Below, one piece after another: positions 20,902 through 40,892 of a stretch of DNA of 64,000 nucleotides. The DNA comes from Catajapyx aquilonaris (taxonomy: Eukaryota), in contig JYFJ02000746.1 of assembly GCA_000934665.2 (NCBI GenBank), positions 1 to 64,000 of the forward strand, read 5' to 3'. The notes below the pieces were generated by a model. The model saw only the letters and a program-made list of their open reading frames with translations. It had not been told where the DNA came from and searched no databases. The position numbers were made by a program, and so were the translations under genes. Every line of letters starts with the position of its first letter. Position 1 is the first letter of the stretch.

Positions 20902-23259
20902 ATGGGGCTCGAAAGCACAATGATTTGGTGAGTTGAAGGATATTTTTTAAGGTTTAAAGTGACATGGAAAGGTCAAATCAGGTCAGAAACTATCGAATCA
21001 CGATCACTGAACATGATGGGAGGTCAAGGGTCATCGAATATTGGGAGGGTCAGCAGGTGTTCTGACCTGGAACAATAAGGCTTATATTTATGTTCCAAAC
21101 TGAATGGAACACTAGGTTTAACGGACGTTGAAAGGTCAAGTCAGGTCACAGTGATCGGATCACGATCACTGAACATGCTGGGAGGTCATAGGTCATCGAA
21201 TATTGGCAGTCGGCTGGTGTTCGGATCTTTTTATGTTCCGAACCATTCTGAACTGTACGGAACAATTCGCATGACTGCCATTCTGAACTGTACGGAACAA
21301 TTCTCATGACTGCCGTTCTGAACTGTACGGAACAATTCTCATGACTGCCGTTCTGAACTGTACGGGACAATTCTCATGACTACCTTTCTGAACAGTACGG
21401 AACAATTCGCATGACTGCCATTCTGAACTGTACGGAACAATTCGCATGACTGCCATTCTGAACTGTACGGAACAATTCGCATGACTGCCGTTCTGAACTG
21501 TACGGAACAATTCTCATGACTGGCTTTTTTCCCCCTTCTAGTGTGGACAACAGCGACTACATGCGCAATGGCGACTTTGTTCCAACACGCTTGCAGTCGC
21601 AGCAGGATGCGGTCAACATCATATGCCACTCAAAGGCTCGTGCGAATCCGGAGAACAATGTTGGATTGTTGACTCTGGCCAAGTAAGGTTTTGGGATAAT
21701 ACCAGGGCTTCATTTAAATGGTTTTGAAATTTTTTTGAACCAATATAATTTCCATTCTCCATTCCAATGCATTCTTTGCCATTTCTACCACTTGGCTCTG
21801 CCTTTTTTTCTCCCCCGCAGCAGTTCGGAGGTGTTGGCCACCCTTACAACGGATGTCGGTCGTATTCTGTCCAAGCTGCATCAGGTCACGCCTTGCGGGA
21901 ATGTCAATCTCCTGACTGGAATACGCATCGCTCATGTCAGTACTTACTGACTACTTGGACCATTAGACGTAAAGGTTTGATGCTAATTTTTGCTTTTATA
22001 GCTGGCTCTGAAGCATCGGCAGGGGAAGAACCACAAGATGCGGATCGTGGTTTTTGTAGGCAGCCCTGTGGTGACGGACGAGAAGGAATTGGTCAAGTTG
22101 GCCAAGCGTCTCAAAAAGGAGAAGGTCATGGTCGATGTCATCAACTTTGGTGAAGAGGTGGGTTCCCATACCATGGTTTTTTTCTGCAGATGAACTTGAA
22201 TAATTATTTAACGTAAGGCCGTAGAAGAAACGGTAACCGCAGCTTACATGTCGTTTTTTGCAGAGTCACAACACGGACACCTTGACGCAGTTTGTGAACA
22301 CTCTGAATGGGAAGGAAGGAACTGGAAGCCACCTGGTGACTGTATCTCCTGGTCCGCACCTAGCGGATGCTCTCATCTCCTCCCCAGTGGTACAGGGTGA
22401 GGATGGCGCAGGGGGAGCTGGACTTGTGGGCACCTCTGGCTTTGAATTTGGCGTGGACCCCAACGAAGATCCTGAGCTTGCACTGGCTCTCCGCGTGTCC
22501 ATGGAGGAGCAGCGCCAGCGCCAGGAGGAGCAAGCTCGCCGTGCCAGGGAGCAGTCTGCACAGGAGGCCGGCGGCACCACTGGAGACGTCGTAATGGCCG
22601 AACCAGGAGCAGACACGCCTGCCATGGACACTTCGGCGGAAGAGTCCCTTCTGGAAAAGGCACTGGCCATGTCCCTGGAGTCCACTGAGCGAGAAGGCGG
22701 AGAAGTTGCAGGAGGAGGAGTCGGAGCGGCAAGGGTCAGCAGCACAACCAGCGTCGGAAGTGGCGGAGGGAGGGGCGGAAGTGGGTTGGGGGTTGGAAAC
22801 CTGCCGGACTTCTCCCAGATGAGTGAGGATGACCAGATCGCCTACGCCATGCAGATGAGCATGCAGGATGCCCGTAAGTGTCTGCACGGCATGTTCCTTT
22901 GTTGAAGCTGCAATTAAATGGATTGTCATCTGTTTCCAGAGGAGCAGGCCCACCGTGGAAAGGGAAGCGAAGTAGGCTCCATGGAGGTGGACGAGGAGGA
23001 GGATTACGGCGAGGAGGAGGAGGAAGGCGGAGAAGGGAGGCGCGGGGACGAAGACTACTCCGAGGTCATCAGTGACCCTGCTTTCCTGCGCAGTGTGCTG
23101 GAGAACTTACCTGGTGTGGACCCACAGAGTGAGACAGTCCGATCAGCTGTAGGGTCATTGGCCACCCAGCAGCAGGAGCAGGAGCAGAAGAAGAAGGACG
23201 AGAAGAAGAAGGACGAAAAGAAGAAGGACGAAAAGAAGGATGCGAAGCGCAAGAAGTGA
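20902..23259 (+). CDS. PSMD4: 26S proteasome ubiquitin receptor Rpn10/S5a; exons 20902-20927, 21542-21682, ~21821-21935, 22002-22157, 22264-22873, 22940-23259
   Basis: [34 protein letters not shown] vWA start, [46 protein letters not shown], three UIM-like segments, [17 protein letters not shown] and a lysine-rich tail. Confidence 0.98.
21243..21522. repeat. 35-bp minisatellite x8 in PSMD4 intron 1 (CCATTCTGAACTGTACGGAACAATTCGCATGACTG)
   Basis: Head-to-tail near-identical units without spacers, ending about 20 nt before the exon 2 acceptor. Confidence 0.95.
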
Positions 23260-23410
23260 AGGAATAAAAGGAAGAGTGTACACGTAACTTAAAACAGCCC
23301 TTTTTTTGGTATGAATTGCTGAATTTAGCATTGCTTAAAATTTGTGTTTCCCTATCCTTTTTTTGCTAAGGGATTAATAAAGAGTAGGTAGTGGGAACAA
23401 TAATCAGTTT

Positions 23411-24120
23411 TTAATTTCTGAATGTGCTTGGTCCTGGGTCGACCTCTTCAGGCTTGAGGCCCCTGCGGCACCTGTTGAGAATGAAGTGCTTCTCCGTCTC
23501 ATCTGCCGTGCGCAGGTAGCGGCCTGAGTCATGCTGTTCTATACGATCAGTCTGCGGGTCGTAGTACCCATCGCAAGTGTCTCGGTGGTCTGGGATCAGC
23601 TGTGGTGGCGGGTCGCGGTTGGACTGCAGGGAACGTCCAGCAGGCTTGACCTGATCCAAGATCTCATTGTAGAACCTGTGGGGTGAGAATTGTCAATATC
23701 AACAGCAATGCCTATGGATGCACAAGTTAATTACCTCCTGTCTGGTGGTATGCAGTAATTCCACTTCTTCGGCTGGTAGACCAGCCCATCGTTGAAGGTG
23801 TAGACTCCATCCGTGTTTTTTCCGTCGATCCAGCTTCCTTCGAACTTGCCTCCGCTTGGGTAGAACAAGATCCCGTGTCCGTGGAAGCATCCGTCCTTCA
23901 TCCCACCCCTGTACTGCACACCTGCGGGACACCCAAACATGTCAGTTGCCTCTGGCGATGTAACCCAAGCGTAACTGACAATACCTGTAGCTAGCATGAA
24001 GGACCCTTCAATTTCCATCCGACCACCACGGTAGTGTCCCTGGTACTCGCTTCCGGTACAGAAAGTCTCACTCTTATGCTCATCAAGACTAGTCACTTTT
24101 CCAGGTCCTTCGCTCGTCAT
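23411..24120 (-). CDS. MORN5: MORN repeat-containing protein 5, copy A (3 exons, intact)
   Basis: TGSEYQGHYRGGRME..YRGGMKDGCFHGHG..YTFNDGLVY..WNYC..DRR/FYNEI..KPAG..DGYYDP..RYLRTAD..CRRG follows the MORN5 pattern (TGSKYIG..GRMEG..MKDGMFHGEG..WHYC..DRRFYTEI..LKPAG..DGFYNP..FLRNAD..CRKG). Confidence 0.92.
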
Positions 24121-24344
24121 TTTGTAAATATTTCATATGACCTGAATATCATTTTTGAAAATTTAGCTCGAAGTTTTGGATTGAACATGGCTTCTCACAC
24201 ATACTGATTGGCACGACCTGCACTAGTCACCTAGCAATGGCGGCCGTTTTGAAAGAACGCGCACTGTTTTCTCACAAAATCCGGGCTCAAACTGTGACCT
24301 GACCTGACCAAAACCTGTGCCGGTGACCATCTGACCTACCAGCC

Positions 24345-24500
24345 ATGCTTCGAGCCCTGTGACCCCAAAAATGACCCCACGTGGGTATAAATCTACTAAA
24401 TTTTGTTACCTGATTCAGAGAATTAACTTTTCATTCCTCTTTCCAGCAACGTCCAACTCGACTCAGAGTTGTTGTCACACTGTCATGGCAACGTCAACTG
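24345..24500 (+). pseudogene. Degenerate COX15 exon 1/exon 2 remnant
   Basis: ATGCTTCGAGCCCTG-TGA (MLRAL*), the donor CAC/GTGGGTATAAA and GTCATGGCAACGTCAAC match the COX15 5' region at 35431-35605. Confidence 0.85.
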
Positions 24501-24521
24501 CAATTTAGCCCAGTCTACATA

Positions 24522-26316
24522 TAGTCCGGGTGCTAAGGGGTTGAACTTTGCATTTTGTGACAAAAGTATGAAACTCGGTACACTTGTCCTTTGGACACTT
24601 CTGATCATATCTGGACGTGGAGCCACGATGACCCACCCCGGTTGTGGTCCATTTCGCAGGGTTTCCATATCTACCAGATGCAGCATCCTTTTAGGACCTT
24701 GTATTCGGTGACAAAAACATGAAACTCGCCCCAATTGGTCTTTGGACACTATTGAACATGTCTGGAAGTGAGGCCACTATGGATGACCCCGCTGGGGGTC
24801 ACTCGCAGGGTTGCCAGATCAGATCTAATGGGCTCTCTAAGTAAACTATGTGAATAGGGAGCTTGCATTCGGTGGCAAAGACGTGAAACTCGGTACAACA
24901 TAGTTCTTTGCACACTTCCGAACATATCTGGACCTGGGGACACGATGACCCACCCCGGTGGAGGGTACTATCATGGTGTTGCCAAATCTAACAGACTGTG
25001 CAACATGCGTTTATTTTTGAAATAATGAGCTTGCACTTGGTGACAAAGCCATAAAATTTGGTACGTTTAGTTCTTTGCACACTTCCGAACATATCTGGAC
25101 GTGGGGTGACGATGACCCACCTCGAGGGAGGGCACTATCGCAGGGTTGCCGTATATAGTCGGGGCAACCTAGAAATACTCCATATGAATAGGGAGCTTGC
25201 ATTCGGTGACAAAGCCATAAAACTTGGTACGTTAGTTCTTTGGACACTTCCGAACATATCTGGACGTGGAGCCACGATGACCCACCGAATGCAAGCTCAT
25301 TATTCAAAAATAAACACATGTTGCACATTCTGTTAGATATGGCAACCCTGCGATAGTGCCCTCCCTCGGGGTGGGTCATCGTGGCTCCACGTCCAGATAT
25401 GTTCGGAAGTGTGCAAAGAACAATTCTACCAAGTTTCACGTCTCTGTCACCAAATGCAAGCTCCCTATCAAAATATAAACGCATGTTGCACAGTCTGTTA
25501 GATTTGGCAACACCATGATAGTACCCTCCACCGGGGTGGGTCATCGTGTCCCCAGGTCCAGATATGTTCGGAAGTGTGCAAAGAACTATGTTGTACCGAG
25601 TTTCACGTCTTTGCCACCGAATGCAAGCTCCCTATTCACATAGTTTACTAGAGAGCCCATTAGATCTGATCTGGCAACCCTGCGAGTGACCCCCAGCGGG
25701 GTCATCCATAGTGGCCTCACTTCCAGACATGTTCAGTAGACCAATTGGGGCGAGTTTCATGTTTTATCAGTGTTTTATCACCGAATGCAAGGCCCTTATT
25801 CATGTAAAGGTGTGCAACGCATGTTCGATTTGGCAACTCCGCGATAGTGACCCCTGGCGAGGCCACCAGGGGTCACCCACCGTGACCCCATGTCCAGATA
25901 TGTTGAGATGTGTTCAAAGAACTACCGTGCCGAGTTCCACGTTTTTATCACCGAATGCAAGCTCCCAATTCACATGATCTTCGGAGAGATGTATGTTTGG
26001 TCCATTAGATCTGGTAACCCTGCAAGTGACCCACAGCGGGGTCAGTCATCATGGCCCCACATCCAGACATGTTCAGAAGTGTCCAAAGACCAATTGTGGC
26101 GAGTTTCATGTTTTTGTCACAGAATACAAGGTCCTAAAAGGATGCTGCATCTGGTAGATATGGAAACCCTGCGAAATGGACCACAACCGGTGTGGGTCAT
26201 TGTGGCTCCACGTCCAGATATGATCAGAAGTGTCCAAAGGACAAGTGTACCGAGTTTCATACTTTTGTCACAAAATGCAAAGTTTGGGTCAAATTTGTCC
26301 CTTAGCACCTGGACTA
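24522..26316. mobile_element. Non-autonomous palindromic (foldback) DNA transposon with TAG..CTA termini and a 3-bp ATA target-site duplication; possibly Academ-like
   Basis: Ends TAGTCCGGGTGCTAAGGG / CCCTTAGCACCTGGACTA. 24545-24749 is the near-exact reverse complement of ~26080-26285. Internal ~140-160 bp subrepeats switch orientation near 25285. ATA on both flanks (24519-21, 26317-19). The paralogous empty site TAC-ATA-AACTCATG lies near 33894-33907. Confidence 0.88.
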
Positions 26317-26344
26317 ATAAACTCATGTCAGCGAGCTCATGTTC

Positions 26345-26600
26345 TCAATATGTTGGGCCAAGTAATTTGGATCGTACCAGGGCACCATTTTAATGGTTTT
26401 AATATTTTTTGGCCTAATTTTCCGCAGTAATTGGGAGATGCTGGCCACCCTTACTATGCGGATGCCAGTCGTATTCTCTCCAAGTTGCCCATAAGCGAGT
26501 TCCTTTCCTGCGCAGTACTTACCTGGTGTGGACCCACAGAGTGAGAGAGTCAGCAGCAGGAGTATGAGCAGAAGAAGAACGCAAAACGCAAGAAGCGAAG
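26345..26600 (+). pseudogene. Degenerate, internally deleted PSMD4 remnant (exon 2 end/exon 3 joined to the last exon)
   Basis: GGCCAAGTAA..ACCAGGGC..CCGCAG..GGCCACCCTTAC..TCGTATTCT.TCCAAG matches 21677-21880, then jumps to CTTTCCTGCGCAGT..ACTTACCTGGTGTGGACCCACAGAGTGAG (23081-23133). Confidence 0.85.
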
Positions 26601-26714
26601 GAATAAAAGGCGTCCATGTAACTTGAAAATTTTTGTATTCTTTGCCAGATTTAGCATTACTTAAAATTTTGTTGTTTCCTATCATTTTTTTGCAAAGGCA
26701 GCAATGAGTAGTTT

Positions 26715-27072
26715 CTAACTCCTGAAAGTGGTTGGCCCTGGGTCGACCTCCTCAGGCTTGAGACCCCTGCGGCACTTGTTTAGTGTGAAGAGCTTCTCAG
26801 TCTTGTCTGCAGTGCGCAGGTAGCGGCCTGAGTCATGCTGGTGAATACGATGTGTCTGTGGGTCGTAGTATCCATCGCATGTGTCTCGGTGGTCTGGGTG
26901 CAGTGGGGGTGGCGGGTTGCAATTGGCCTGGAAGGAACATCCAGCAGGTTGGACCTCATCCAAGATCTCATTGTAGAAGCTGGATTTGTGGGAATAAATA
27001 TGATATAAGAGCAACATCCGCCACGTTGTCGAAAAATAATGCACAAGTTAATTACCGCCTGTCTGGTGGTAT
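26715..27072 (-). pseudogene. MORN5 copy B, 5'-truncated (last exon, intron 2 and a few codons of exon 2)
   Basis: The FYNEILDEVQPAG...CRRGLKPEEVDPGPTTFRS* exon is intact, but homology to copies C and E stops abruptly after GTCTGGTGGTAT at ~27072. Confidence 0.88.
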
Positions 27073-28063
27073 TATAGTACACTGAAGAGAGTGAAAAGTA
27101 TTTTTCAAGTCACTGCAGCTCTGAAAATAAGGACTCTACGTGGAAAAGGTATACTTATACTTTTTTTTGTGGCATACAATATGTTTCTGTACAACCTTTG
27201 TTTGTCACATTTCCTCCTGAGAAGCATAGTTCGCTCAGAAAAGACTTTTAACTCGCTTCAAAGTAGCCAATCCGCAATTACGGGCCTCCAGGACGAAAAC
27301 GGGCGTGGCGCCATATCTGAATTTGAAGAGTATGGCTCTCAGGGACATTTGTACCAAATTTCATGCTTTCTTCACCAAATGCACGGTTGACCCATTATTC
27401 AACGTCCGGATTCCTGATAACCCAACCTTTTTTTTTTCTCCGGTGATCACACTCCTCTACTCCGTTCGTCTTCATTTATTCGGGTTCTTGGCCTGGGGAA
27501 GTGCAGCAGGGGCCAGTGGGTGCACTGTCGCTCCCGCGGCGGGTTCGGCGGCTTGGGCGGCTACATGGTATGCACAAGGACATGGGAGAGTGACCTGGTC
27601 CTTTAAGATGTGAACAGGAATACTGAGCTGAAGTTGTAACAAGCCTGTTTACCACTGCCATTTTGAACCTCTCAAAGGGTAGGCCGTACCCGATAGTAGA
27701 CAGTAGGCCCTACCTCTGGAGCGCTGTGGGACAAAATTTGGGTCGCAATTAATTTTGAGACTACCTCACAAAATTAAGCAATTTTAAAGAATCCACTACT
27801 TAGCTTGGATCTTTTGCTAACACAATGTGTATTTTTTTTGCATGTTTGTCACATTGAACAATTGCTACACGTAATTTCTAACAACCTAATGCAACATCGC
27901 CCAATGTTCCCTGTTGCTGGGCAAATTTGGGACATGACGTGGAGTACTTTGGGACAATGATAATATTTCATGATTACAAGCCAATATAAGGAAAAGTCTT
28001 ATTATTACTTCTTGTGAGAGCTAACAAGTGACAACTTAAGACCTATCATGGGATATCCATTGG

Positions 28064-28064
<1 letters not shown>

Positions 28065-28135
<71 letters not shown>
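28065..28135. repeat. (TTG)n microsatellite
   Basis: About 23 uninterrupted TTG units; explains the poly-Cys and poly-Leu ORFs. Confidence 0.97.
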
Positions 28136-29994
28136 ACGACAGTGCAGTGGGCCAAATAACACTCTCAAAAGACTCAAGACGTCTGTTTGTTACAGCACAA
28201 TTACAATTGAATCATATAGAAATGGGAAAGTGCCATATAAGTGTTTTCTGAAATTAGGAACTTCAATATTAAGCACATTGAATTTCTATACGATTGGTTC
28301 GAATTATTGCCATGAAACATTCATGCAGAATCGTCACCTCTTTTAGGTGCTGATTTTAACTCTAATGTTTAATTTTTCACATATAAACGTTAATTTGTGA
28401 ATTTTAGAGGGTCTTTTTTGATTGGACCAAGTCTGTTAGGATGAGTTTAGTTTTTTCCCAAATTTTTTTTTTCTTTTCAAAATAAAACCCTACATACTGC
28501 TCTGAGCAGTTTGCAGCAGTAATTTTTACGAGTCGTTCCATGCAGTACTTGAGAATTGCTTGAGTAAGACCTATGGTACAGCTTAAATCAATTGGTGAAG
28601 GTCTTACATGAGCCAGCCTTGTTTCAGTACTTTCATTCCGCCACGGAGGTCTTACTACCCTTTTTTTCACTGAAGGGAATGTTTTTGCTCTTATTTCAGT
28701 TCTTTCTTTAAACCCCTTCGCAATACCAGCCTAGGTTGTCGCTTACATGTACTCTGAAGACAAGGACAAGATAGTGCTACAGTGATATATACATATCATA
28801 CTAATAGTCCAGTCAAATAATTGTTGATGGACCTAGAACAAACTGCAACAGAAATGGTGTCAACTGATTCTATAGTAAAAAATGGCGCTGAAAACGATGG
28901 AACACAGTCTGAGACTGTCCGGTCGCCCCAAAAGCCGCCATCTTGAAAAAATGGCGGCCAAATCGGATATGTTGAACAAAAACATTTTTTTATCACGGAA
29001 ACGACTCGGGTTTAATGGAAAGTGAACTGGACATAAATGAAACAGCATAGAATATACTTCAAGACGACACTTTCATCTTCTCTGTAGAGTGCATAATGTC
29101 GAATCTAGACAAGCATTCTCAAGTATCGCATTTGCCATCTTATGGCAAACTGAGTCTTTCATGGTGAATTGGGATAAAAACAAGAGTTCTTTAGGCCTGT
29201 ATGTGAAGTAGTATACGTGAATAACTGCATTTCATGCATTAATAACATTACATGGATACATAGATCTCCAACTACAGTAGCCTCCAGATATAACAGACTT
29301 CAATGGACTGCGGAATTCAGTCTGTTACAACCGAGATCTGTTGTAGGAAGATACACAGGGCATAATATATGGCAGTATGGCCGGTCCCAGCATACTTCCA
29401 AAAGGCCCTGTGCATATTCACTCCGGATATAACAGACTCATTTTTCACCTCACATCGGCTATATTAACAGACAATTTCTTGGCCCTTCTGTGGGAAAATA
29501 TGCTGTTTTCGATTACTCGGCGTCTACTTCCCACGCGAGGAAACCACTGGACTGAAAAGTGTACACTGGAGTACCTAATTCAAGGAGTACCAAGGAGTAC
29601 CAAATAGTAAAGTACCTATCAACCAACATCATCATCTGCGTAAAACTGGCTCTGGCCAGAATCCATGCCAACCCATTTCTGACTGGCTGGATGGCTCTGT
29701 CTGGATTTTGGATGCTGGGTTTCCGGATGGATGGCTCTGTCTGGATTTTGAATGCTGGGTTTGGAGATAATAGACCTGCAAGAGATTGACCAATGCATCG
29801 ATCCTAGTCAGTCGAATCACCACGTCCGAGTGCGGATAGGAGAGGTCCTAATAATCCGGGAAATATTCGATCTCGTCGATCTTGTCAAAGTGTTCCGCAA
29901 CATCTCCTCCTCCTTCGGTCGTTAAACTCTGTAGCGCCGATTGGGCTTCACTCGACAACATCGCGGATGTGTATGCGTAGGGCGATGTAGAGCG

Positions 29995-30060
29995 TGAGAC
30001 TGTCAGCAGCAGCAGGAGTATGAGCAGACGAAGGACGCAAAACGCAAGAAGCGAAGGAAT
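29995..30060 (+). pseudogene. Short PSMD4 last-exon remnant next to the 3' end of MORN5 copy C
   Basis: GTGAGAC.GTCAGCAGCAGCAGGAG..GAAGGACGCAAAACGCAAGAAGCGAAGGAATAAAAGG matches 26541-26610 and the PSMD4 3' end. Confidence 0.8.
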
Positions 30061-30188
30061 AAAAGGAATGGTACATGTAACTTTAAATTTTTTTGTATTC
30101 ATTGCCAGATTTAACATTACTTAAAATTTTGTTGTTTCCATATAATTTTTTGCAAAGGCCTTAGAGTAGTAGCAGCAATGAGCAGTTT

Positions 30189-30909
30189 TTAACTCCTGAA
30201 AGTGGTTGGCCCTGGATCGACCTCCTCAGGCTTGAGACCCCTGCGGCACTTGTTTAGTATGAAGAGCATATCAGTCTTGTCTGCAGTGCGCAGGTACCGG
30301 CCTGAGTCATGCTGGTGAATACGGTGTGTCTGTGGGTCGTAGTATCCATCGCATGTGTCTCGGTGGTCTGGGAGCAGTTCGGGTGGTGGGTTGCGATTGG
30401 ACTGGAAGGAACGTCCAGCAGGTTGGACCTCATCCAAGATCTCATTGTAGAAGCTGGATTTGTGGGAATAATGTCATATAAGAGCAACATCCGCCACATT
30501 GTCGAAAAATAATGCACAAGTTAATTACCGCCTGTCTGGTGGTATGCAGTAATTCCACTTCTTCGGGTTGTAGACCAGTCCATCGTTGAAGGTGTAGACA
30601 CCGTCCGTGTGTTTTCCGTCGATCCAGTTTCCTTCGTACTTGCATCCGCTTGGATAGTGCAAGACTCCGTGTCCGTGGAAGCATCCGTCCTTCATCCCAC
30701 CCCTGTACTGCACACCTGCGGGAGACACCAAAATATTAGTCATCTCAGAAGATCCAAGAGCAACTGACGATACCTGTAGATAGTGTGTACGACCCCTCAT
30801 CTTCCATCCGCCCACCACGGAAGTGTCCTTTGTACTCGCTTCCAGTGCAAAAAGTCTCACTACTGTCCAGCTCAATAATTTTTACTTTTGCAGGTCCTTC
30901 GCTGTTCAT
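30189..30909 (-). CDS. MORN5: MORN5 copy C (3 exons, intact; 30909-30774, 30715-30529, 30453-30189)
   Basis: MNSEGPAKVKIIELDSSETFCTGSEYKGHFRGGRMEDEGSYTLST/GVQYRGGMKDGCFHGHG..DRR/FYNEILDEVQPAG..TFRS*. GT-AG phases are consistent. Confidence 0.88.
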
Positions 30910-32106
30910 CCTGAAGTTTTTGTAGGACCTGAAATATGAACATCATCATCATCATCATCAAAGAATTATTTATTTTCATTTGGTCAACATTCGGCAATGG
31001 TCACTTGGACACAGCACACTTCAACAACATTAATCTCAAAATATTGACTGGATAAACATAAGACTATCATCAAAAACCATCATTTTGTGATTTTTTTTGG
31101 AATGGGGGTGGCGACATGAGAAGCTCAGCATAGGTGACAGCACTGCGCTTGAGGCCTCAGCAGATATGAGCCCCAAAATACAGGTTGGAGTGAATGGAGG
31201 TTAGGGCAACCTGGGGAATCGGTGCCCCCCCCCNCCCCCCCCCCCCCCCAAATATGGCGACCTCAACATCAGGCGTCAATGCACTGAACCGCACTGAGCT
31301 ATTTCATCCTATTTGTCAGGCTTCCTTGCGAACGTCTGAGGCGCATTGTAAGCCGCATAGTTAGGATAAAGGCTTCCGCCTAAAAAAAAAGTCTGGTACC
31401 CAAATTGTCACCATCACAACTCGCACAGTGTTGCAACAGTCATGGCATGTTCATTTGATACGATACTGTAACATATATTTAAACTACGTGCAGTGAGAGG
31501 CGTGAGTGAGCCAATATTTTCAGGTACTGCAGCAAGAGGGGCCATGGGCTGTCGAGGAAGGCGCCCAAATTCCCCTAGCTCTTTATTCTCGGCGGCGACC
31601 CGGAACGGATCAGACGTACTGTACTTGGCTGCGCTGATGTCAGTCACCCCCACCCGTGATCTAGGGGCCAGTGAACTCGGGGGGTCGATGGCCGACGACT
31701 ATCAACCTCCCTTGACATCGAGATGAAGCTGGCCTGAACCCTTGGCCGATCATAATAAGTAGGTCACCTTTTTTTTTTTCGCAGCCGAGGTTTGCCGCAA
31801 AGAGCTCGGGGCCGAATTCGGCGAGATTGGATCTGTTTGGAATTAATGGCCTGGCGACAGGGCAGTTGATGGGGGAAATATTTGGGTTGTTTCACTTGTT
31901 TGAAAATTATGTCCAGGGCAGCAGGTGCTATGGTGGGGGGCTGTTGTGCGAGGCTACAATTGGGGCCATTGAAATATCGTTGAAGGTGGAGGATGGGCCC
32001 ACGTGGGTATAAAATGCGACTAAAAAAAATTACCTGCTTTAATTATAATTGTCCTTTCCTCTTCTAGCGGCCTCCGATTACTCAACAATTATTCCCTAGA
32101 CGTGTC

Positions 32107-32538
32107 ATGGCAACGTCAACAGCGTCGTCGTCAATGGCAGCAGCGACTGGAAGCAGGGTCGTCGGCTGGTGGTGGGTTGGATGCAGCGGGATGGTCTTTG
32201 GAGCGGTGGTCCTCGGAGGTGTCACCAGGCTCACGGAGTCCGGCTTGTCCATGGTCACCTGGAAGCATGCAGGATGCCTGTAAGTGTCTGCACGGCATGT
32301 TCCTTTGTTGAAGCTGCGACTAAATGGATTGTCATCCACTTCCAGAGGAGCAGGCCCACAGTGGAAAGGGAAGCGAAGTAGGCTCCATGGAGGTGGACGA
32401 GGAGGAGGATTACGGCGAGGAGGAGGAGGAAGGCGGAGAATAGAGGCGAAGACTACTCCGAGGTCATCAGTGACCCTGCTTTCCTGCAGTGTGCTGGAGA
32501 ACTTACCTGGTGTGGACCCACAGAGTGAGACAGTCTGA
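32107..32538 (+). other. COX15::PSMD4 duplication-junction chimera (possible spliced 121-aa ORF or pseudogene)
   Basis: 31993-32266 copies COX15 exon 1 end, intron 1 and exon 2. 32264-32625 copies PSMD4 22858-23259. The junction shares AGC. Exons 32107-32279 and 32346-32538 form an open frame. Confidence 0.6.
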
Positions 32539-32754
32539 TCAGCTGTAGGGTCATTGGCCAGCCAGCAACAGGAGCAGGAGCAGAAGAAGAAGGACGAAAA
32601 GAAGGATGAGAGGCGCAAGAAGTGAAGGAATAAAAGGTAGAGTGTACACGTAACTTAAAAAAAGCGTTGCTTAAAATTTGTGTTTCCCTATCCTTTTTTT
32701 GCTAAGGGATTAATAAAGCTCGGAGTAGGTAGTGCTGGGTACAATAATCACTTT

Positions 32755-33470
32755 TTAATTTATGAATGTGCTTGGTCCTGGGTCGACCTCGTCAGGCTTG
32801 AGGCCCTTGCGGCAGAAATTGAGAATGAAGTGCTTCTCCTTGTAATCTGCAGTGCGCAGGTAGCGGCCTGAGTCATGCTGGTATATACGATCAGTCTGCG
32901 GGTCGTAGAATCCATCGCCCGTGTCTCGGTGGTCCGGAAGCAGCGGCGGTGGCGGGTCGCGGTTGGAATGCAGGGAACATCCAGCAGGCTTGACCTCATC
33001 GAAGATCTCTTTGTAGAACCTGTGGGGTGAGAATTATTGTCAATATCAACAGCAATGCTTATGGATGCACAAGTTAAATACCGCCTGTCTCGTGGTATGC
33101 AGTAATTCCACTTCTTCGGGTTGTAGACCAGCCCATCGCTGAAGGTGTAGACTCCATCCATGTTTTTCCCGTCGATCCAGCTGCCTTCGAACTTGCCTCC
33201 GCCTGGGTAGGACAAGATCCCGTGTCCGTGGAAGCATCCGTCCTTCATCCCACCCCTGTACTGCACACCTGCGGGACACCCAAACATGTCAGTTGCCTCT
33301 GGCGATGTAACCCAAGCGTAACTGACAATACCTGTAGGCAGTGTGAAGGACCCATCATCTTCCATCCGCTCACCACGGAACAGTCCCCGGTACTCGCTTC
33401 CGGTACAGTAAGTCTCACTCTTCCGCTCCTCAGTACTGCTCACTTTTCCAGGGCCTTCGTTCGTCATCAT
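32755..33470 (-). CDS. MORN5: MORN5 copy D (3 exons, intact; closest to copy A)
   Basis: MMTNEGPGKVSS..TGSEYRGLFRGERME../GVQYRGGMKDGCFHGHG..DRR/FYKEIFDEVKPAG..TGDGFYDP..CRKGLKPDEVDPGPSTFIN-TAA after splicing both introns. Confidence 0.9.
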
Positions 33471-33699
33471 CTTTTAATAATTCTTCTGACCTGCAATGTG
33501 TGACATAATTTTGAAAATTTATCTCTAAGATTAGGAATAAACATGGCTTCCTACACATATGATTACTATAACCTGGACTATAGTCACATAACAATGGGGG
33601 CCGTTTTGAAAGAACTCGCACTGTTTTCTCACAAAAATTGGGCTCAAACCTGACCTGACCGGCCTAACACCTGCCCGGTGACCTCCTGACCCACCAGCC

Positions 33700-34170
33700 A
33701 TGCTTTGAGCCCTGTGACCCCAAAAATGAACCCATGTGGGTATAAATCTACTGCTTTTTCCTTTACCTGATTCAGAGAATTAACTTTTCATGACTCTTCC
33801 CACCGACGTCCAATTCTATTCTAAGTCGTTGTCACACTGTCATGACAACATCAACAGCAGTTTAATTACCCCAGTCTGCAGTGTGAACTGTGTTACATAA
33901 ACTCATGATCTCAATATGTTGGGCCAATAAGTAATCGTACCAGGGCGGCATGGTTTTAATATTTTTTGACCTCACTTTCCGCAGGGAGATGCTGGGGCCA
34001 CCCTTACTACAAGGATGCTGTTCGTAATCTCTCGAAGTTGTCAATCAGCGAGTTGCTTTCCTGCGCAGTACTTACCTGGTGTGGACCCACCGAGTGAGAC
34101 AGTCAGCTGCAGGGTCATTGGCCAACCAGCAGCAGGAGCAAGAGAAGGACGCAAAACGCAAGAAGCGAAG
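33700..34170 (+). pseudogene. Older COX15-5'/PSMD4 junction remnant (uninterrupted paralog of 24345-26600)
   Basis: ATGCTTTGAGCCCTGTGA..GTGGGTATAAA..GTCATGACAACATCAAC (COX15-derived), followed by PSMD4 exon 2/3-derived and last-exon-derived sequence. Confidence 0.82.
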
Positions 34171-34303
34171 GAATAAAAGGCGTACACGTAACTTCAAATT
34201 TTTTGTATTCATTGCCATATTTAGCATTACTTAAAATTTGGTTGTTTCCCTATCATTTATTGCAAAGGGCTTATTAAAGAGTAGTGGGAGCAATGTGCAG
34301 TTT

Positions 34304-35017
34304 TTAACTCCTGAATGTGGTTGGCCCTGGGTCGACCTCCTCAGGCTTGAGACCCCTGCGGAACTTGTTTAGTATGAAGAGCATCTCAGTCTTTTCTGCA
34401 GTGCGCAGGTACCGGCCTGAGTCATGCTGGTGAATACGATGTGTCTGTGGGTCGTAGTATCCATCGCATGTGTCTCGGTGGTCTGGTTGCAGTGGGGGTG
34501 GCGGGTTGCGATTGGACTGGAAGGAATGTCCAGCAGGTTGGACCTCATCCAATATCTCATTGTAGAAGCTGGATTTGTGGGAATAATGTGATATAAGAGC
34601 CACGTTGTCTAAAAATAATGCACAAGTTAATTACCGCCTGTCTGGTGGTATGCAGTAAAGCCACTTCTTTGGCTTGTAGACCAGTCCATCGTTGAAGGTG
34701 TAGACGCCATCCGTGTGTTTTCCGTCGATCCAGTTTCCTTCGTACTTGCATCCGCTTGGATAGTGCAATACTCCATGTCCATGGAAGCATCCGTCCTTCA
34801 TCCCACCCTTGTACTGCACACCTGCGGGACACCCCAAAGTATTAGTCGTCTCAAGCTGATGTATATCCAAGCGTAACATACCTGCAGATAGTGTGTACGA
34901 CCCCTCATCCTCCATCCGCCCACCACGGAAGTGTCCTTTGTACTCGCTTCCAGTGCAAAAAGTCTCACTACTATCCTCCTCATTACTTCTTAGTTTTGCA
35001 GGTCCTTCGCAGTACAT
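34304..35017 (-). CDS. MORN5: MORN5 copy E (3 exons, intact; closest to B and C; head-to-head with COX15)
   Basis: MYCEGPAKLRSNEEDSSETFCTGSEYKGHFRGGRMEDEG../GVQYKGGMKDGCFHGHG..DRR/FYNEILDEVQPAG..TFRS*. Confidence 0.9.
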
Positions 35018-35430
35018 CTTGTATAGTTTTAGTAGGACCTGAAATATTGTATGAACATTATCTAATCATCAAAGAATTATTTATTTTCATTTGGTCAACA
35101 TGCGGCAATGGTCACTTGGACACAGCACACTTCAACAACATTAATCTTAAAAAAATGGACAGGATAAACATAAGAACATGATCAAAAACCATCATTTTGT
35201 GATTTTTTTTTTGAAATTTCGGATCAAACATGGCAGCCTCCTGCGTTTGGACCAAACATGGCTGCCTACACCAAACCTGCACTAGCCACATGCAACACAG
35301 CAATGGCGGCCGCCTTGTGAGAAACCGCACGTTTTCCGCCTAAAACCGGGTCTAAACTGCGACCTGAATTGACCTTGGTGTGACCTGACCTGCTCAATAC
35401 TTGCGCTGCTGACCTCCTGACATACAAGCC
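35018..35430. promoter_or_regulatory. Probable bidirectional promoter between MORN5-E and COX15
   Basis: 413 bp between divergent ATGs. Contains ATGGCGGC (YY1-like) and clustered TGACCT half-sites. Related sequence lies upstream of copies A and D. Confidence 0.6.
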
Positions 35431-37125
35431 ATGCTTCGAGCCCTGTCCATGTGCCGGGCGACCCCAAAATGGGCCCACGTGGGTATAAAATTTGACTTTT
35501 GTTTTCAAAAAAAATTACCTGCTTTAATTATAGTTGTCCTTTCCTCTTCAAGCGGCCTCCGATTACTCAACAATTATTCCCTAGACGTGTCATGGCAACG
35601 TCAACAGCGTCGTCGTCAATGGCAGCAGCGACTGGAAGCAGGGTCGTCGGCTGGTGGTGGGCTGGATGCAGCGGGATGGTCTTTGGAGCGGTGGTCCTCG
35701 GAGGTGTCACCAGGCTCACAGAGTCCGGCTTGTCCATGGTCACCTGGAAGCTGTTCGGTGAGACTCCGCCGCACTCAAAAGTCGACTGGGAAGTTGAGTT
35801 TTACAAGTACCAGCAGTTTCCTGAGTTTAAGATGTGAGTTGTACGCCGCCTAATTATCCTGACATTGCCGTAACAAAGTGATTGAAAATTTGGCAGTAAA
35901 AACAAGGATATTACGCTGGATGAGTTCAAGCGGATCTGGTGGATGGAGTACCTTCACCGCACTTGGGGGAGGATGATTGGAGCTGTGTATTACCTCCCTG
36001 CTGCGTATTTATGGGCACGGGGATACTTTGACCGGAGAGGGAAGATACGAGTGTGCGTCGCAGGCGCTCTGCTTGCCTTTCAGGTGATGACGAGTAATTT
36101 GTCGTTAATCAGACAAAAAAAATGTATGGAATTTGACATTATTGCTAAAATCTGCACCATCAAACGTCGAAACTGCGAACCTATGGCATCAGAGTTAAAA
36201 CGGAAAATTGGCACTTCTTTTGGCTCTCCTGTAAGACGATAATGATGTTGAATTCGTCCTTTCGTCTGATCGACGACGAATTATTAATTTTTTTTTTGAA
36301 AATAATAATCTGGGTGGTTCATTTCGCATCGTTTGCTTGTAATTATTAGGGGTTGCTTGGTTGGTACATGGTTCGATCTGGTCTGGAGGACCGGTTCCAC
36401 GGCCCAAGTGACGTTCCTCGTGTGTCGCAGTACCGACTGGCTGCGCATCTCTCCTCAGCTTTCCTTCTCTACGGGATCACACTCTGGTCCGCACTTGACA
36501 TATTGCTGCCAGCTCAGGTAAGGGTTTCGTTTTCACCTGTCGTTTTACAATATACCGTTTCTTTCCATCTCAGGCAGCAACATCGACTGCAACCAGCAGA
36601 TTAGTCCGCAAGCTGGCCATGGGCAGCAAGGGCATGATCTTCCTCACAGCTCTGTCAGGTGCGTTTGTCGCTGGATTAGATGCAGGCCTGGTTTACAACT
36701 CGTTTCCAAAGATGGGCGACAGCTGGATCCCAGATGATGTGATAGCAATACAACCGGTTGTGCGGAACATCACTGAAAACCCATCCACCGTTCAGCTTGA
36801 CCACAGGCTCTTGGTTAGTAGCCAGTTGATCTCCCAATGCGGTTCATAGCAAGATGGATTCTATTGACAGGGAACTACCACGCTGGCTTTGATATCCGGA
36901 GTTTGGATTCTGTCTCGCCGGAGCCGCCTCCCTGGAAGAGCCTCCGTGGCCGTTAATGCGATGGCGGCAATGGCCTGGCTGCAAGTGTCATTAGGTATTG
37001 CAACTCTTCTCATGTACGTTCCGACCCCGCTGGCAGCCTCTCACCAATCGGGTTCCTTGGTCCTACTGTCACTTGCAATATGGCTCTCACATGAACTCAA
37101 ACTTCTCTCCAAGCTGCCCAAGTAA
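35431..37125 (+). CDS. COX15: Heme A synthase COX15, multi-exon
   Basis: Presequence-like [23 protein letters not shown].., then [88 protein letters not shown] and LAASHQ. Stop TAA at 37123-37125. Confidence 0.97.
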
Positions 37126-38054
37126 AATGTAAAATCCAAGGAGGTAAGAAAAATAATATATATGCTTTTCATACTTCTAAATCATCTCAATCTTTTTTAT
37201 TAACCTGTTCGGCAAATAACCCAAACGACAAAATTAAAACTTCTCCGGGGGGGAGGATAGGTCAGTACGAACGTTCTCATACCCTTATATAATTGTTACT
37301 ATCTTGTACATCCCTGCGTGCTTGACTGTGATGGTCTCCATTTATATATATATTTATATTTTTTGGGAATTTTTTTTTGTCTCTTTTTTAAATATCTCCG
37401 TTTTAAGTACACATACTCTATAGTTGGCATTTTTGTTATAACCACACACACAAACAGAAAAAAAAATTCAATTAACATCTTTGTTTTGTAACAACAGTGA
37501 GCATTTTTGTCTTAAATGTTTTTTTTTGTATATATATATATAGGGATTATGTACATTGTCTATTAAGTATGATAAAATTAATTTGTGGCACAAATGGGGG
37601 TTTTTTAAGGTGGGTCAACACACGGCAGTCCAGTCTTAATAAATTCCACAAGCTCTAGGTCAAATTCTTGCAACTATTACAGCCAAAAAAGATGATCCGA
37701 ATTAACCCATATTTTTGGGCGGCGGCGGAAAGTTACAAAATATTAACTAGCGGCTTGTGGTAAGTTAATACACTTGACTGGACCACCATGTATTTTTTCT
37801 TAAAAGGTGGGGTTTGGAACGGGGTAAAGGGAATTGGGGGGTCACATTCACACACGTGAACAATGCACACACTCACATGCGTGTGGTGAGCCAAACTGAC
37901 CAACCACCAGTGGGTATATTTTTATCACAGTTTTTTATCATATCCAAGTTGAGAGCTCACAACCGCAACGCCATCTTTGGTGGGGAAACAGTGGGGGGTG
38001 AGGTGGAAAGGAAGGGGGATTTCAGGAAGTTAAAACTGTGGGGGGTGAAAAGTC

Positions 38055-40892
38055 TCAGCTGTCGACTCTGGTGAGTCCGTCTGGATGATTGACGATGACC
38101 TGCACGACGTGGCCTGATGGTATCTTGGCATCCTCCAGCCGCAGTTTGTCCCCAAGCAGCTTACCACCGTAGAACCACCGTTGCCTGATGGCCTCCACTG
38201 ACTCTTGGCTCTGTTGAGACATCTTAAGCTCGCATTGTCAATACGACAACTCACACCTTAGGATGCGGACCACTTACCTGTAGCCTTCTCTTGGCAACTC
38301 CAACGGTGTCCGAGGAGAAGACGGGCAGTTTGTAGTCGTTGCCTGTGGTGGACAGACGGACCTTGAGCACCATCTCGGATCCAGTGGTACCGTCCACCGG
38401 CTCAGACCATTCTGCGGGGGAGTCCCTCCCCTCAGACTCCCGGATCATGTTAATCGGATAAGACAGGCAGTACACTGGGACCTGGTAACGGTTGCCCAGT
38501 TCATCGTAGCAATCAGTCAAGGAGCCTGGGAAGGAGTCGAGAGAGTGGTAGAAAAATGGTCACAACTAGTCGCGTTTCAAGCGATTTGATCAGAAATCGC
38601 CTTACATGTAAACGTGAGGTGACAATAACATTGCACATACCGGTGGGTAGTGAGACACTGGCTCCATCCAGGATGGCCTGTGCCAACTGGAAGTCCGAGG
38701 TCTCAGCAGCAATGGCAGCTGCCCTGAGGGCATCCCATATCTCCTTGCGTCCCTCGAAGGCTGGGGCTGTGTCCCAGAACTCATCACGTTTACTCCGAAG
38801 CTGCCCATCCGTCAGAGGTATGTCCGACTTCCAGCGGACACGCTCTTGCTTCAGTGGGTGGTTCTTTCCTACAAAACCGAGCAGAATTGTAATTGCACTT
38901 GATTTCACCCTCATTACTAGTTACGTATAACTAATTTAATATTTTTATGAACAGTTGATTCCGCAAATTCAGATTATAGCTCTACATTTTACAATTACTT
39001 CGAAGGGACATGTTGTGAGCAGGGTTTCTCACGCAAGAGTTGTCAAGATGCCATTTCCGTTCAAGCCTTCTAAAAGGTGATGCAGTTGTTATGACTCAAC
39101 AGGAGTGACCTGCAGATAAACATTATTCTGATGAGATGTCAACACATCCAGGATGAATAAGGACAGAAAACAAGGTCAGCGCACCACGGGCTTGACTCTT
39201 TTGTTTACAGAGTGACTGATGTGGAAATTCGGAATAGAGAGTTGACATTATGACGTGATGCAGAGCAGCATAATCAAAGATTCTGACTCCGCAGCAAATA
39301 TCTTTTTCTCCTAGTCAGTGCAGTTCATGTTTAACGATTAAGTTCATGCATCATACAATAGTTGAGTGTCTCGTCTATGATGCGGTGTATTACACTGCGG
39401 TGTGTTTCACTTCACGTTACAATTATTCATCGTCATGCATCACGGCTTTTTCCCCGAAAGACTGGAGTTGCCAGTGGATGGGGAGGATCTGGATATTTTG
39501 TGTTCTACAGTAACTCTGTACTGCTGTAGCTTCATGATAGTCGACCCCTGCTTAGCCTTTACAATAATTGCAGAACAAAGAGTTTCACTTTCAGGTGCGT
39601 CCATCGCTTTTTCTGACAATACAGCCAATCCTACCACAATTCCAGCCCTGCCTTTATCCCTATCTGATTATGTAAAACAACGACCTTGGTAAAAAAAAAA
39701 AAACGACGGCCTGACAACATTGCATTGTCTCGCATCATGTCAATATGATGAGCCCCAGCATGTGATCAGAATAGATTGGGAACCTACTTTCATCACGTGC
39801 TTCGGCTGCAACACCACAAAAAAAACCTACAGCCGCCCTCCAAATATGCAATCATCTGACGCAATCTGACAAATCGCACCATACCTAAATGAATCCAGCT
39901 TGCACGTAATTTACACCAGCCGCGTAAAAATTCAGCAACATTCACATAGGGTTAATAATTTTGATGGGGACTATTGTTCCTGCAGTCTGAGGTCCAGTAG
40001 GGGAATCTTGTGAATGTAATTCACGCAATTGTTACATACACATTGAACGTAATCCACGCCATTGTTACGCACAAATTGAATGTAACCCATGCAATTGTTA
40101 TGCACACATTGAATGTAACCCATGCAATTGTTATGTACTAATTGAATGCAAATCATGCAATTGTTACATACACATTGGATGTAATTCATCCGATTGTTAT
40201 GTACACATTGAATGTAGTACATCCAATTGTTACGTACACATTGAATGTGATTAATGCTATTGTTATGTATGCATTGAATGCGCATCATGCTATTGTTACG
40301 TACTCATTGAATGCGCATCATGCTATTGTTACGTACACATTGTAATTCATGCTATTGTTACACGTACATCCAAGTTTAAATCCACGTTTCATGTGAGCCA
40401 TTTATCAGCGATTTTGCAGCAATGTACAACGCTCAGCGAAAGTAGCAAACAATTGGTCTCATCGCTGAACTATATGTACATCGCCGATCAATCGCATGCA
40501 TGTAAAAGCGTCTAAAATCCTGTCTTTGCCGTCAAGGCAGGGCCAATATGTTCATAATACGTACGTAATATTGGCTGCAATTACCCAACCATATTGAAAC
40601 CACTGCTTGGTTCCAGGTTATTGACCTTCTTATGAAACGGGACAGTAAGTGTTCCATTATGTCGACCAATATGTGTCCACATTTTAAGTTGCTTCCAAGT
40701 GACCTTTGACCCCTCCCTAATCTGCCCCCACCTCTGCATCATCTTTTTCCGTGCAATAATTATTATTATCCGTGTGCAGCAGCATATGCGACACCACATA
40801 TTTTTACCTCCCCTGGAGCTGGTGGAGGCGTCTGAAGTGACGGCGCTTGTGGTGCTCCTCTCGCGCCGGATCCTCCCTACGCATCCTCCCAT
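38055..40892 (-). CDS. Ubiquitin domain-containing protein (UBTD1/UBTD2 family), 4 exons
   Basis: MGGC N-terminus (myristoylation/palmitoylation-like), [57 protein letters not shown], and a ubiquitin-like domain [24 protein letters not shown] at 38055-38057. Confidence 0.95.
40010..40362. repeat. 33-bp minisatellite, about 10 copies, in UBTD intron 1 (TGAATGTAA...CAATTGTTAYRYACACAT)
   Basis: Visible tandem units; they produce the 11-aa periodic ORF 39971-40288. Confidence 0.9.

Follow-up and report, generated by a model that had tools for sequence, protein, structure and literature searches.

An open reading frame (ORF) that joins the head of COX15 to the tail of PSMD4 raises the question of whether a gene is being born at this locus or whether the frame is a leftover of rearrangement. 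We addressed it in the window, i.e. the whole 64,000-nucleotide stretch analysed (Catajapyx aquilonaris, contig JYFJ02000746.1, positions 1 to 64,000), in which the earlier note had read the frame as a nascent chimeric gene or as a reflection of recent gene conversion. Our analysis favors another answer: the ORF very likely marks the place where the two units of a tandem duplication meet, an event by which MORN5 was amplified, and would be a decaying by-product of it. The features concerned are collected in Table 1.

Table 1. Features around the COX15-PSMD4 seam, in window coordinates.
Feature	Position	Strand	Remark
PSMD4/Rpn10, intact parent, 3′ part, five exons from 21541	21541..23259	+	stop 23257-23259
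MORN5 copy A, three exons, 195 aa, open	23411..24120	-	MORN repeat; MORN5 chains 9d2f_I, 9fqr_Xu
Old COX15-head remnant beside copy A, first seam	24345..24521	+	13-nt exon 1 deletion, stop after 5 codons
Foldback repeat element	24522..26316	.	terminal inverted repeats, ATA on both sides; old seam of unit 1 only
Old PSMD4 remnant and truncated MORN5 copy B	26317..27072	-	exon 3 and end of exon 2 only
MORN5 copy C, 195 aa, open	30189..30909	-	upstream promoter segment replaced by repeats
Fragment of dispersed repeat 1	31100..31212	.	~95% to other contigs
Internal 742-bp piece of second dispersed repeat	31251..31992	+	other copies continue past both ends
Last 10 nt of predicted COX15 exon 1	31993..32002	+	out-of-frame ATG inside (13-codon uORF if spliced)
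Copy of predicted COX15 intron 1	32003..32067	+	4 substitutions, 9-nt deletion
COX15 exon 2 piece	32068..32266	+	1 silent and 1 replacement change
AGC microhomology, join point	32264-32266	+	common to COX15 35749-35751 and PSMD4 22858-22860
Inherited last PSMD4 intron	32280..32345	+	GT..AG, 5 substitutions in 66
Decaying copy of last PSMD4 exon	32346..32625	+	deletions of 8, 2 and 30 nt after 32446, 32485 and 32583
MORN5 copy D, 195 aa, open, fastest-evolving copy	32755..33467	-	MORN5 chain match in exon 3
Old COX15-head/PSMD4-remnant seam of unit 2	33700..34200	+	decayed; COX15 similarity stops at 33858
MORN5 copy E, 195 aa, open	34304..35017	-	MORN repeat
COX15, intact parent, six-exon model, 392 aa	35431..37125	+	PF02628, X5 contig pieces

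Both parents were identified in the window. PSMD4, which donates the 3′ half of the chimera from position 22858, was recognized by a PDB match to Rpn10/S5a (E 4e-46), a UIM and a C-terminal match to 6U19, and a spliced contig of run X5 spans 21541-23364 with 0 differences and four GT..AG joints, including the joint 22873/22940 that removes intron 22874-22939, the parent of the intron of the chimera. COX15 was recognized by PF02628 on two exons (E 1e-18 and 2e-20), and X5 contig pieces lie over 36569-36812 and 36870-37120. Its start is most likely ATG 35431 rather than 35592, giving a model in which exon 1 (35431-35478, 48 nt) is followed by a GT..AG intron (35479-35552, 74 nt) and exon 2, and in which the first 29 residues comprise five Arg, one Lys and no acidic residue. 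Exon 1 is a predicted one, since the splice 35478/35553 is not among the X5 joints listed. A 71-aa COX15-head query (unspliced) found 59 matches among 135 candidates of 39-125 aa; 8 of the 12 inspected start with Met and, by manual count, carry 31-64 residues ahead of the helix (the starts being automatic gene calls), which is consistent with the exon 1 model.

Alignment of 31993-32266 to COX15 35469-35751 resulted in six substitutions and one 9-nt gap over 283 columns, and 32264-33880 aligned to 22858-24519 with 85.6% identity, which confirmed the COX15-PSMD4 microhomology junction at AGC proposed in the earlier note; the inherited PSMD4 intron that it had delimited was also found, with GT at 32280 and AG ending at 32345. 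The seam falls within the last UIM of PSMD4 and splits it. Three bases are shared at the join, a microhomology too short by itself to fix the repair pathway. The 5′ part of the downstream gene is followed by the 3′ part of the upstream gene, flanked by two direct copies of the enclosed segment, and both parents are intact outside the seam according to the gene models and the spliced X5 contigs. A genome search with the 633-nt finding gave six matches, by which the chimera, both parents and the old remnants are confined to this contig. In its gene order, intact parents and microhomology join, the seam has the makeup of a tandem-duplication junction chimera. The joining of a COX15 head to a PSMD4 tail at a microhomology, as first suggested, is therefore a reasonable mechanism; the overall interpretation built on it held up only in part, as described below.

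The enclosed segment carries MORN5, which lies on the minus strand between PSMD4 and COX15 in five copies (A-E). PF02493 (MORN repeat) scored above cut-off in exon 2 of all four intact copies, exon 2 of A matches solved MORN5 chains, and exon 3 of D matches two PDB sequences only, both of them MORN5 (E 6e-14 and 6e-13), the other copies being 74-82% identical to D over exon 3 in this MORN5-specific C-terminal region. All four full-length copies (A, C, D and E) encode 195 aa without a stop and are 73-91% identical to each other. The stop of A lies 152 bp from that of PSMD4, while E and COX15 are arranged head to head, with 414 bp between their starts; with MORN5 so close to both neighbors, the breakpoints of a duplication that includes MORN5 and its promoter will tend to fall within PSMD4 and COX15. 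In mouse cilia, MORN5 is one of the subunits of the radial spoke 3 stalk (bioRxiv 10.1101/2025.05.19.654877); it is also found in the sperm tail of mouse and human (PMC5526581), and a Tetrahymena RS3 mutant has reduced amounts of the orthologue (PMC12399478), according to the available excerpts of these reports.

The segment 22858-35751 consists of two diverged units, 22858-32266 and 32264-35751, joined at AGC. MORN5 dS is 0.39 between the A/D and C/E groups, 0.12 within A/D and 0.11 within C/E, and B and C are 5.2% diverged, which together argue for at least three nested duplications. The first left an old COX15-head/PSMD4-remnant seam, now present in both units (near 24521; 33858-33902), and the second copied 22858-35751 and created the AGC seam. 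Unit 1 later gained other insertions and, at the old seam, a foldback element, which was found by self-BLAST and whose ends were defined against the empty site 33860-33925. The PSMD4 part of the older seam is broken into pieces; relaxed BLAST of its right side against PSMD4 21520-21960 returned nothing at E 0.01, and it is tied to PSMD4 only by a 65-bp match (21815-21879 to 26422-26488) and by last-exon pieces, which leaves the old duplication without a defined left breakpoint.

The MORN5 frames have been kept through these events. Coding sequence shows 0 gap events in 1,176 aligned columns as compared with 25 in 1,115 non-coding columns, where about 26 would be expected (P 4e-12). Changes were polarised with the other pair as outgroup, by which 15-20% of them could not be polarised: A has 3 silent and 13 replacement changes (dN/dS ~1.3), D 7 and 25 (~1.1), E 6 and 12 (~0.6) and C 6 and 6 (0.30, the lowest of the four). 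The A/D pair has an overall dN/dS of 0.89, not above 1, making positive selection on A/D a candidate; intact frames at dN/dS near 1 suggest a mixture of positive and purifying selection.

Upstream of the seam, COX15 similarity begins just 10 nt before the end of exon 1, and COX15 35211-35468 (258 bp: promoter, ATG and most of exon 1) is replaced by 31099-31992, in which pieces of two dispersed repeats lie. The second repeat exceeds 5.7 kb, with ~94% identity between copies, and its left end holds the 5′ end of a prolyl-tRNA-synthetase-like gene (PF00587, PF03129). The piece in the window starts right after CCAAT and CACGTG motifs upstream of that gene, which we take to be promoter elements, and both motifs are excluded from it. 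An ORF near one copy of this repeat, which we liken to a helicase, gave no Pfam hit, leaving a Helitron origin of the repeat unsupported. The chimera has lost the native COX15 promoter and the predicted start, and is left with an internal ATG in good context; 14 ATGs occur in 31251-32106. MORN5 copy C has lost its ancestral promoter segment too, with repeats in its place, and its frame is still intact. Having the lowest dN/dS of the array without that promoter, C may be served by a promoter in the repeats, or the loss may be recent.

Conceptual splicing of the chimera gave an open frame of 121 aa from ATG 32107 to TGA 32536-32538, as the earlier note had described; unspliced, the frame meets a stop after 58 aa. 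Both introns retain GT..AG, the ATG has G at -3 and +4, and the stop is located in the last exon. ATG 32107 most likely corresponds to Met30 of COX15, not to its start codon. The course of the frame was only partly as first described: it does return to the PSMD4 frame after a 2-nt deletion, but an 8-nt deletion upstream of that one had been missed, and the tail traverses three frames. The return lasts 16 codons only, inside the segment matching 6U19, and is ended by a new CGA>TGA change that forms the terminal stop of the ORF.

With the parents joined at AGC and no mutation, the frame at birth is 102 codons long, because the shadow frame of the Glu-rich stretch of PSMD4 reads Gly/Arg and is open in the parent too. 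Since then, it has acquired two frameshifts and one stop. In neutral simulations in which the observed load (11 substitutions; deletions of 8, 2 and 30) was placed randomly (20,000 runs per setting), at least 121 aa was reached in 23.7% of runs, in 31.6% when deletions were confined to the PSMD4 part, in 15.7% at a higher rate and in 3.9% with substitutions only. The length of 121 codons is the neutral expectation, no longer than chance gives here. The ORF has two frameshifts in 366 nt as against 0 in 2,352 MORN5 nt (Fisher P 0.018), where one neutral branch would give 4.1 expected indels over the ORF; the chimeric frame is not protected from indels and stops. The PSMD4 piece contains three deletions and eight changed codons, of which three are nonsense and one is silent. 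Selection against the PSMD4 frame was considered for this nonsense excess (P 0.01 at a 6% nonsense fraction) and rejected for now, since two of the nonsense changes are CpG C>T transitions, the third took two changes, and the frame concerned is not the fused one.

Little of either parental protein is kept. The COX15 exon 2 piece spans positions 2-34 of 322 of the Pfam COX15-CtaA domain (33/322 kept), so that the chimera shares with COX15/CtaA heme A synthase (PF02628) the first hydrophobic segment with its conserved stretch of 12 residues, whereas ~90% of the domain is missing, including the predicted targeting leader and the later helices, which carry the histidine ligands. The helix is moderately hydrophobic (maximum Kyte-Doolittle 19-mer mean 1.73) and is preceded by 18 residues with one Arg, compared with 47 residues in the parent model; judged by composition only, the chimera appears to lack a basic N-terminal mitochondrial leader. 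A Pfam search of the second exon gave no hit, and the chimera retains no whole UIM and no VWA domain. RAZUL, the two-helix domain of the Rpn10 C-terminus (PMC7064531, in the excerpt available), is broken: only its middle piece is kept and the ORF stops before the rest. The chimera is a member of neither the COX15 nor the Rpn10 family. The Gly/Arg tail was found in none of the 12 inspected among the 59 matches to the COX15 head, a set that contains no close relative and therefore says nothing on conservation.

The COX15 part had also been reported to differ from its parent far less than the A/D flanks of the same duplication. The exonic piece does have only two changes in 209 nt and no indel, while these flanks (MORN5 exon 1, promoter and old remnant) are 13.8-17.8% diverged; however, the A/D flanks are the most diverged segments of the unit, so this comparator overstates the deficit. 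By clock, the COX15 deficit has a P of 1e-4 (MORN5 dS), 0.008 (PSMD4 piece) or 0.08 (introns and UTR). At 3.0-4.3% per branch, the chance of two or fewer COX15 changes is 0.051-0.006 on the copy's branch alone, and 0.016-0.001 with the silent sites of the parent added. Comparison with the PSMD4 exon (9/296) gave a Fisher P of 0.13, or 0.05 when indels were counted. By site class, 1/147 replacement sites, 1/51 silent sites and 0/49 exonic nucleotides upstream of the ATG have changed, indicating that the deficit spans silent and pre-ATG sites and is not specific to the replacement sites of the ORF. Few third positions have changed on either side of the seam (COX15 1/70, PSMD4 1/98).

Divergence is patchy across 14 segments (chi-square P 2e-6), with a 111-bp identical run in the COX15 piece (parent 35551-35661) and a 126-bp run identical between D and A that covers all of MORN5 intron 1 (permutation P 0.001). 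Judged from these comparisons, patchy divergence with identical runs has the appearance of short conversion tracts. Two sequences alone cannot prove a conversion tract. Recent gene conversion, the second reading of the earlier note, is reasonable in view of this patchiness in the array, but chance or selection fit as well. The contrast between the exon and the adjacent copy of intron 1 (4/65 substitutions and one deletion) has the shape of selection; with only two changes in the COX15 piece, there is no power to separate the three, and its under-divergence would fit conversion or chance as well as selection.

Five sequencing runs from two studies were listed, none on record as RNA; X1 and X2 (DNA) are one sample, probably the source of the assembly. 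The chimera and its parents share exact runs of 31 bp (35721-35751), 38 bp (22874-22911) and 111 bp (35551-35661). DNA contigs start at 35722 and end at 22903 in both X1 and X2, and an X2 contig ends at 35580; its X1 counterpart ends at 35549, unexplained by branching at the seam. Contig ends of this kind are branch points of a 31-mer graph if both paths exist, indicating that the seam is present in the reads. A misjoin is made less likely by this, although a second individual is not thereby provided, X1 and X2 being from a single sample. The DNA contig at 32177 has depths of 49 and 39 versus ~30 and 25 on single-copy pieces, the depth to be expected if two copies had collapsed into one. X5, whose kind is unrecorded, was taken as RNA since its contigs skip four GT..AG introns of PSMD4. 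Among the matches listed for this one sample (tissue unknown), X5 contigs cover neither 31489-35205 (chimera, MORN5 D and E) nor MORN5 A and C, and the PSMD4 contig is unbroken through the 80- and 50-bp stretches common to the chimera. As X5 consists of assembled contigs of one sample, from which rare variants drop out and which show presence and not absence, the gap in cover counts neither for nor against expression of the chimera.

On our preferred reading, a template switch or end-joining at the 3 bp microhomology would have made the AGC seam, and selection would have kept the extra MORN5 copies, of which A and D diverge at dN/dS near 1. The fused head would at birth have had the COX15 promoter and targeting peptide, the fusion then being 131 aa long; a repeat-derived replacement would have removed both, with the fusion tail mutating freely. 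The high identity of the COX15 exon would stem from chance, or from a short tract converted by the COX15 gene at a distance of 3.5 kb. A nascent functional gene would instead have a repeat-derived promoter, a spliced mRNA, translation from ATG 32107 and a COX15 half under selection, its product being a small protein in which a single hydrophobic helix from COX15 is followed by a basic Gly/Arg tail. Such a gene would account for the contrast of 2/209 exonic changes with 4/65 and a deletion in the adjacent intron, for the COX15 deficit (P 0.001-0.05) and for the retained splice sites, good start context and stop in the last exon, and chimeras of the same layout are often expressed in Drosophila yakuba, with 24/76 upregulated in the accessible part of that study (PMC5460883). 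However, the native promoter has been lost together with the start codon and the greater part of the targeting peptide, the 3′ half carries two frameshifts and is closed by a nonsense change, the ORF length is one that neutrality predicts, the Gly/Arg segment is a pre-existing shadow frame of PSMD4, the helix is only moderately hydrophobic, and pre-ATG and silent sites (0/49 and 1/51) are as conserved as replacement sites (1/147), unlike under protein-level selection, although at low power. The sequence thus lends no support to the 'nascent chimeric gene' of the earlier note, and the gene reading is unlikely, to the point that we would give it only a slim chance. An extended form of it, which we hold to be just as improbable, would have the repeats act as a two-way promoter, serving MORN5 C on one strand and, on the other, a proto-gene at the seam for a small membrane-anchored protein with a basic Gly/Arg tail, restarted at an internal Met and thereby deprived of mitochondrial targeting, whose COX15 half would already be under purifying selection and whose shadow-frame tail would still be remodelled; if true, the proto-gene would be hitch-hiking on the amplification of a sperm gene, with an extinct predecessor, the older seam, adjoining it.

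A different origin, with the product still a scar, would involve two steps: the whole PSMD4-to-COX15 cluster would have been duplicated and its housekeeping copies homogenised for a time, until COX15 copy 1 and PSMD4 copy 2 were brought together by a deletion between the two AGC sites, following the Sdic route. Putatively neutral sites near the seam are indeed less diverged (16/420, 3.8%) than those elsewhere in the duplicated unit (182/1,734, 10.5%; P 5e-6, with the grouping made post hoc), and silent sites are so too (2/107 versus 28.5/268 in MORN5 pairs, P 0.003). Against this, the seam introns (9/131, 6.9%) match the C/E neutral classes (7.0-9.2%), the 9/296 changes of the PSMD4 exon fall mostly on one branch, so that one event at ~3-4% per branch fits most segments, with only the D/A promoter and old remnant standing apart; moreover, the genome search, with the 633-nt query only, found no second PSMD4 5′ end or COX15 3′ end. 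We regard the two-step origin as possible though rather unlikely. Retention of the COX15 exon piece as cis-regulatory DNA for MORN5 C/D, or within a non-coding transcript, would explain why silent and non-ORF exonic sites are conserved alike and would suit a MORN5 C that is intact though its ancestral promoter segment is gone, but the older COX15 heads beside A and D have diverged freely (13.8%), and ~1.1 kb, mostly repeats, separates the piece from the start codon of MORN5 C, making such a role highly improbable. Hardly credible is an assembly artefact, i.e. a misjoin or two haplotypes stacked in tandem: the assembly is fragmented (20,583 contigs), no bridging contig is among the matches listed and the contig at 32177 reads the C of the parent, yet contigs break at 35722 and 22903 (X1, X2) and at 35580 (X2), where 31-mer paths must branch, the copies are 5-17% apart with private deletions and insertions, and the depth at 32177 (49, 39) is that of two collapsed copies.

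The preferred reading, a duplication scar, has parallels in known systems. Tandem-duplication breakpoint chimeras of D. yakuba are young and segregating, and 24/76 were upregulated (Rogers, Shao and Thornton 2017, PMC5460883, as far as the accessible text goes). The layout here is that of Fig. 2 of that paper, in which the downstream gene contributes its 5′ end and the upstream gene its 3′ end, and a whole gene lying between them is duplicated; we accordingly class the chimera as a tandem-duplication junction chimera of the D. yakuba type. Unlike in the cases described there, the seam is old (3-7% diverged) and out of frame, the 5′ partner has lost its promoter and first exon, and the middle gene is constrained. 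The Sdic array of D. melanogaster is described, in the available part of PMC7475035, as having widespread gene conversion with its parents, a pseudogene leftover per repeat and a link to sperm. The present locus resembles it, to the extent of that description, in that neighboring genes were duplicated into a tandem array which retains pseudogene remains and is connected with sperm function, but in Sdic the chimera itself was amplified, expressed and selected, whereas here plain MORN5 was amplified and the chimera resembles the AnxB10-like leftover. Since its frame is not protected, we do not count the chimera among functional chimeric genes such as Sdic. The MORN5 copies are like known MORN5 in having MORN repeats in all four intact copies, and differ in forming four intact tandem paralogues and a fragment. 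Among the literature matches listed, whose scope leaves out most subscription journals, neither a MORN5 tandem array nor a COX15/PSMD4 chimeric locus is reported.

The scar itself is ordinary, but it allows one to follow how fusion ORFs are produced as a side effect when genes are amplified in a compact genome. A COX15/PSMD4 fusion was formed on two occasions here, and what has become of the older seam is the likely fate of the younger one. If the chimera proved to be both translated and under constraint, it would provide a dated instance of a gene born through internal re-initiation and the recruitment of a shadow frame. The most noteworthy part of the locus is the MORN5 array, with four intact, diverging paralogues of a component of radial spoke 3 and the sperm tail; that two of these copies have a dN/dS near 1 with no indel or stop points to adaptive divergence of a flagellar structural protein.

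The four intact MORN5 paralogues lying between PSMD4 and COX15 are 73-91% identical in pairwise comparison, and no coding indels were found among them (window 23411-35017). For copies A and D, which form one of the two more closely related pairs in the array, dN/dS is ~1, and their changes reside mostly in exons 1 and 3 (17.8% and 10.4%, respectively, vs 4.9% in the MORN-repeat exon). Despite an overall D/A difference of 8.9%, window 33212-33337 matches copy A over 126 bp without a single difference, spanning the entire MORN5 intron 1 (permutation P 0.001), and this run is likely a conversion tract. Over the promoter region and the old COX15 remnant (33468-33880 vs 24130-24519), D and A differ by 14-17%, about twice the difference of the neutral classes of the other pair, C/E, a value that one duplication date does not account for.

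The segment that in the other copies forms a promoter region common to MORN5 and COX15 has been lost from MORN5 C (window 30910-31992). Despite this loss, MORN5 C displays the lowest dN/dS of the four; either the loss is recent or the repeats drive this copy.

Features of the window and related loci elsewhere in the genome
Feature	Position	Strand	Remarks
Tandem array of ~35-bp units	21242-21527		immediately upstream of first visible PSMD4 exon
MORN5 tandem array	23411-35017	minus	four intact 195-aa paralogues, one fragment
Foldback element	24522-26316		1.8 kb
Large dispersed repeat, window piece	31251-31992		
Multi-exon gene	38000-38900	minus	closely downstream of COX15
Large dispersed repeat, other copies	L008-L012, L013-L015		contigs C4937, C1468, C10203, C5983, C3674 (G000)
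Non-LTR reverse-transcriptase-like frame	L013:8916-9815	+	near repeat copy
Helicase-like frame	L015:8969-9466	+	near repeat copy

The foldback element comprises two inverted arms of diverged ~165-bp units and sits precisely at the seam of the earlier duplication, where it has inserted and where a COX15 head joins a PSMD4 remnant. It is flanked by a 3-bp duplication (ATA), its summed depth in DNA runs is very high, and its termini (TAG..CTA) may be reminiscent of Academ-type elements.

The large dispersed repeat exceeds 5.7 kb, with copies ~94% identical to each other. At its left, it contains the 5′ end of a prolyl-tRNA-synthetase-like gene, probably mitochondrial PARS2, together with the sequence upstream of that gene; the long frame runs on only on C4937. 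The repeat has the appearance of a captured gene fragment or of a segmental duplication that has become dispersed. Of the frames near its copies, one presumably resembles the reverse transcriptase of a non-LTR element and the other a helicase; a Pfam scan of the helicase-like frame returned no match.

Judged from its translation, the gene downstream of COX15 presumably resembles the ubiquitin domain-containing protein UBTD1/2. In the PSMD4 copy at the COX15::PSMD4 junction (32264-32625), three of the eight changed codons in the PSMD4 frame are nonsense. Two of these three are C>T changes at CpG, which hints at gene-body methylation.
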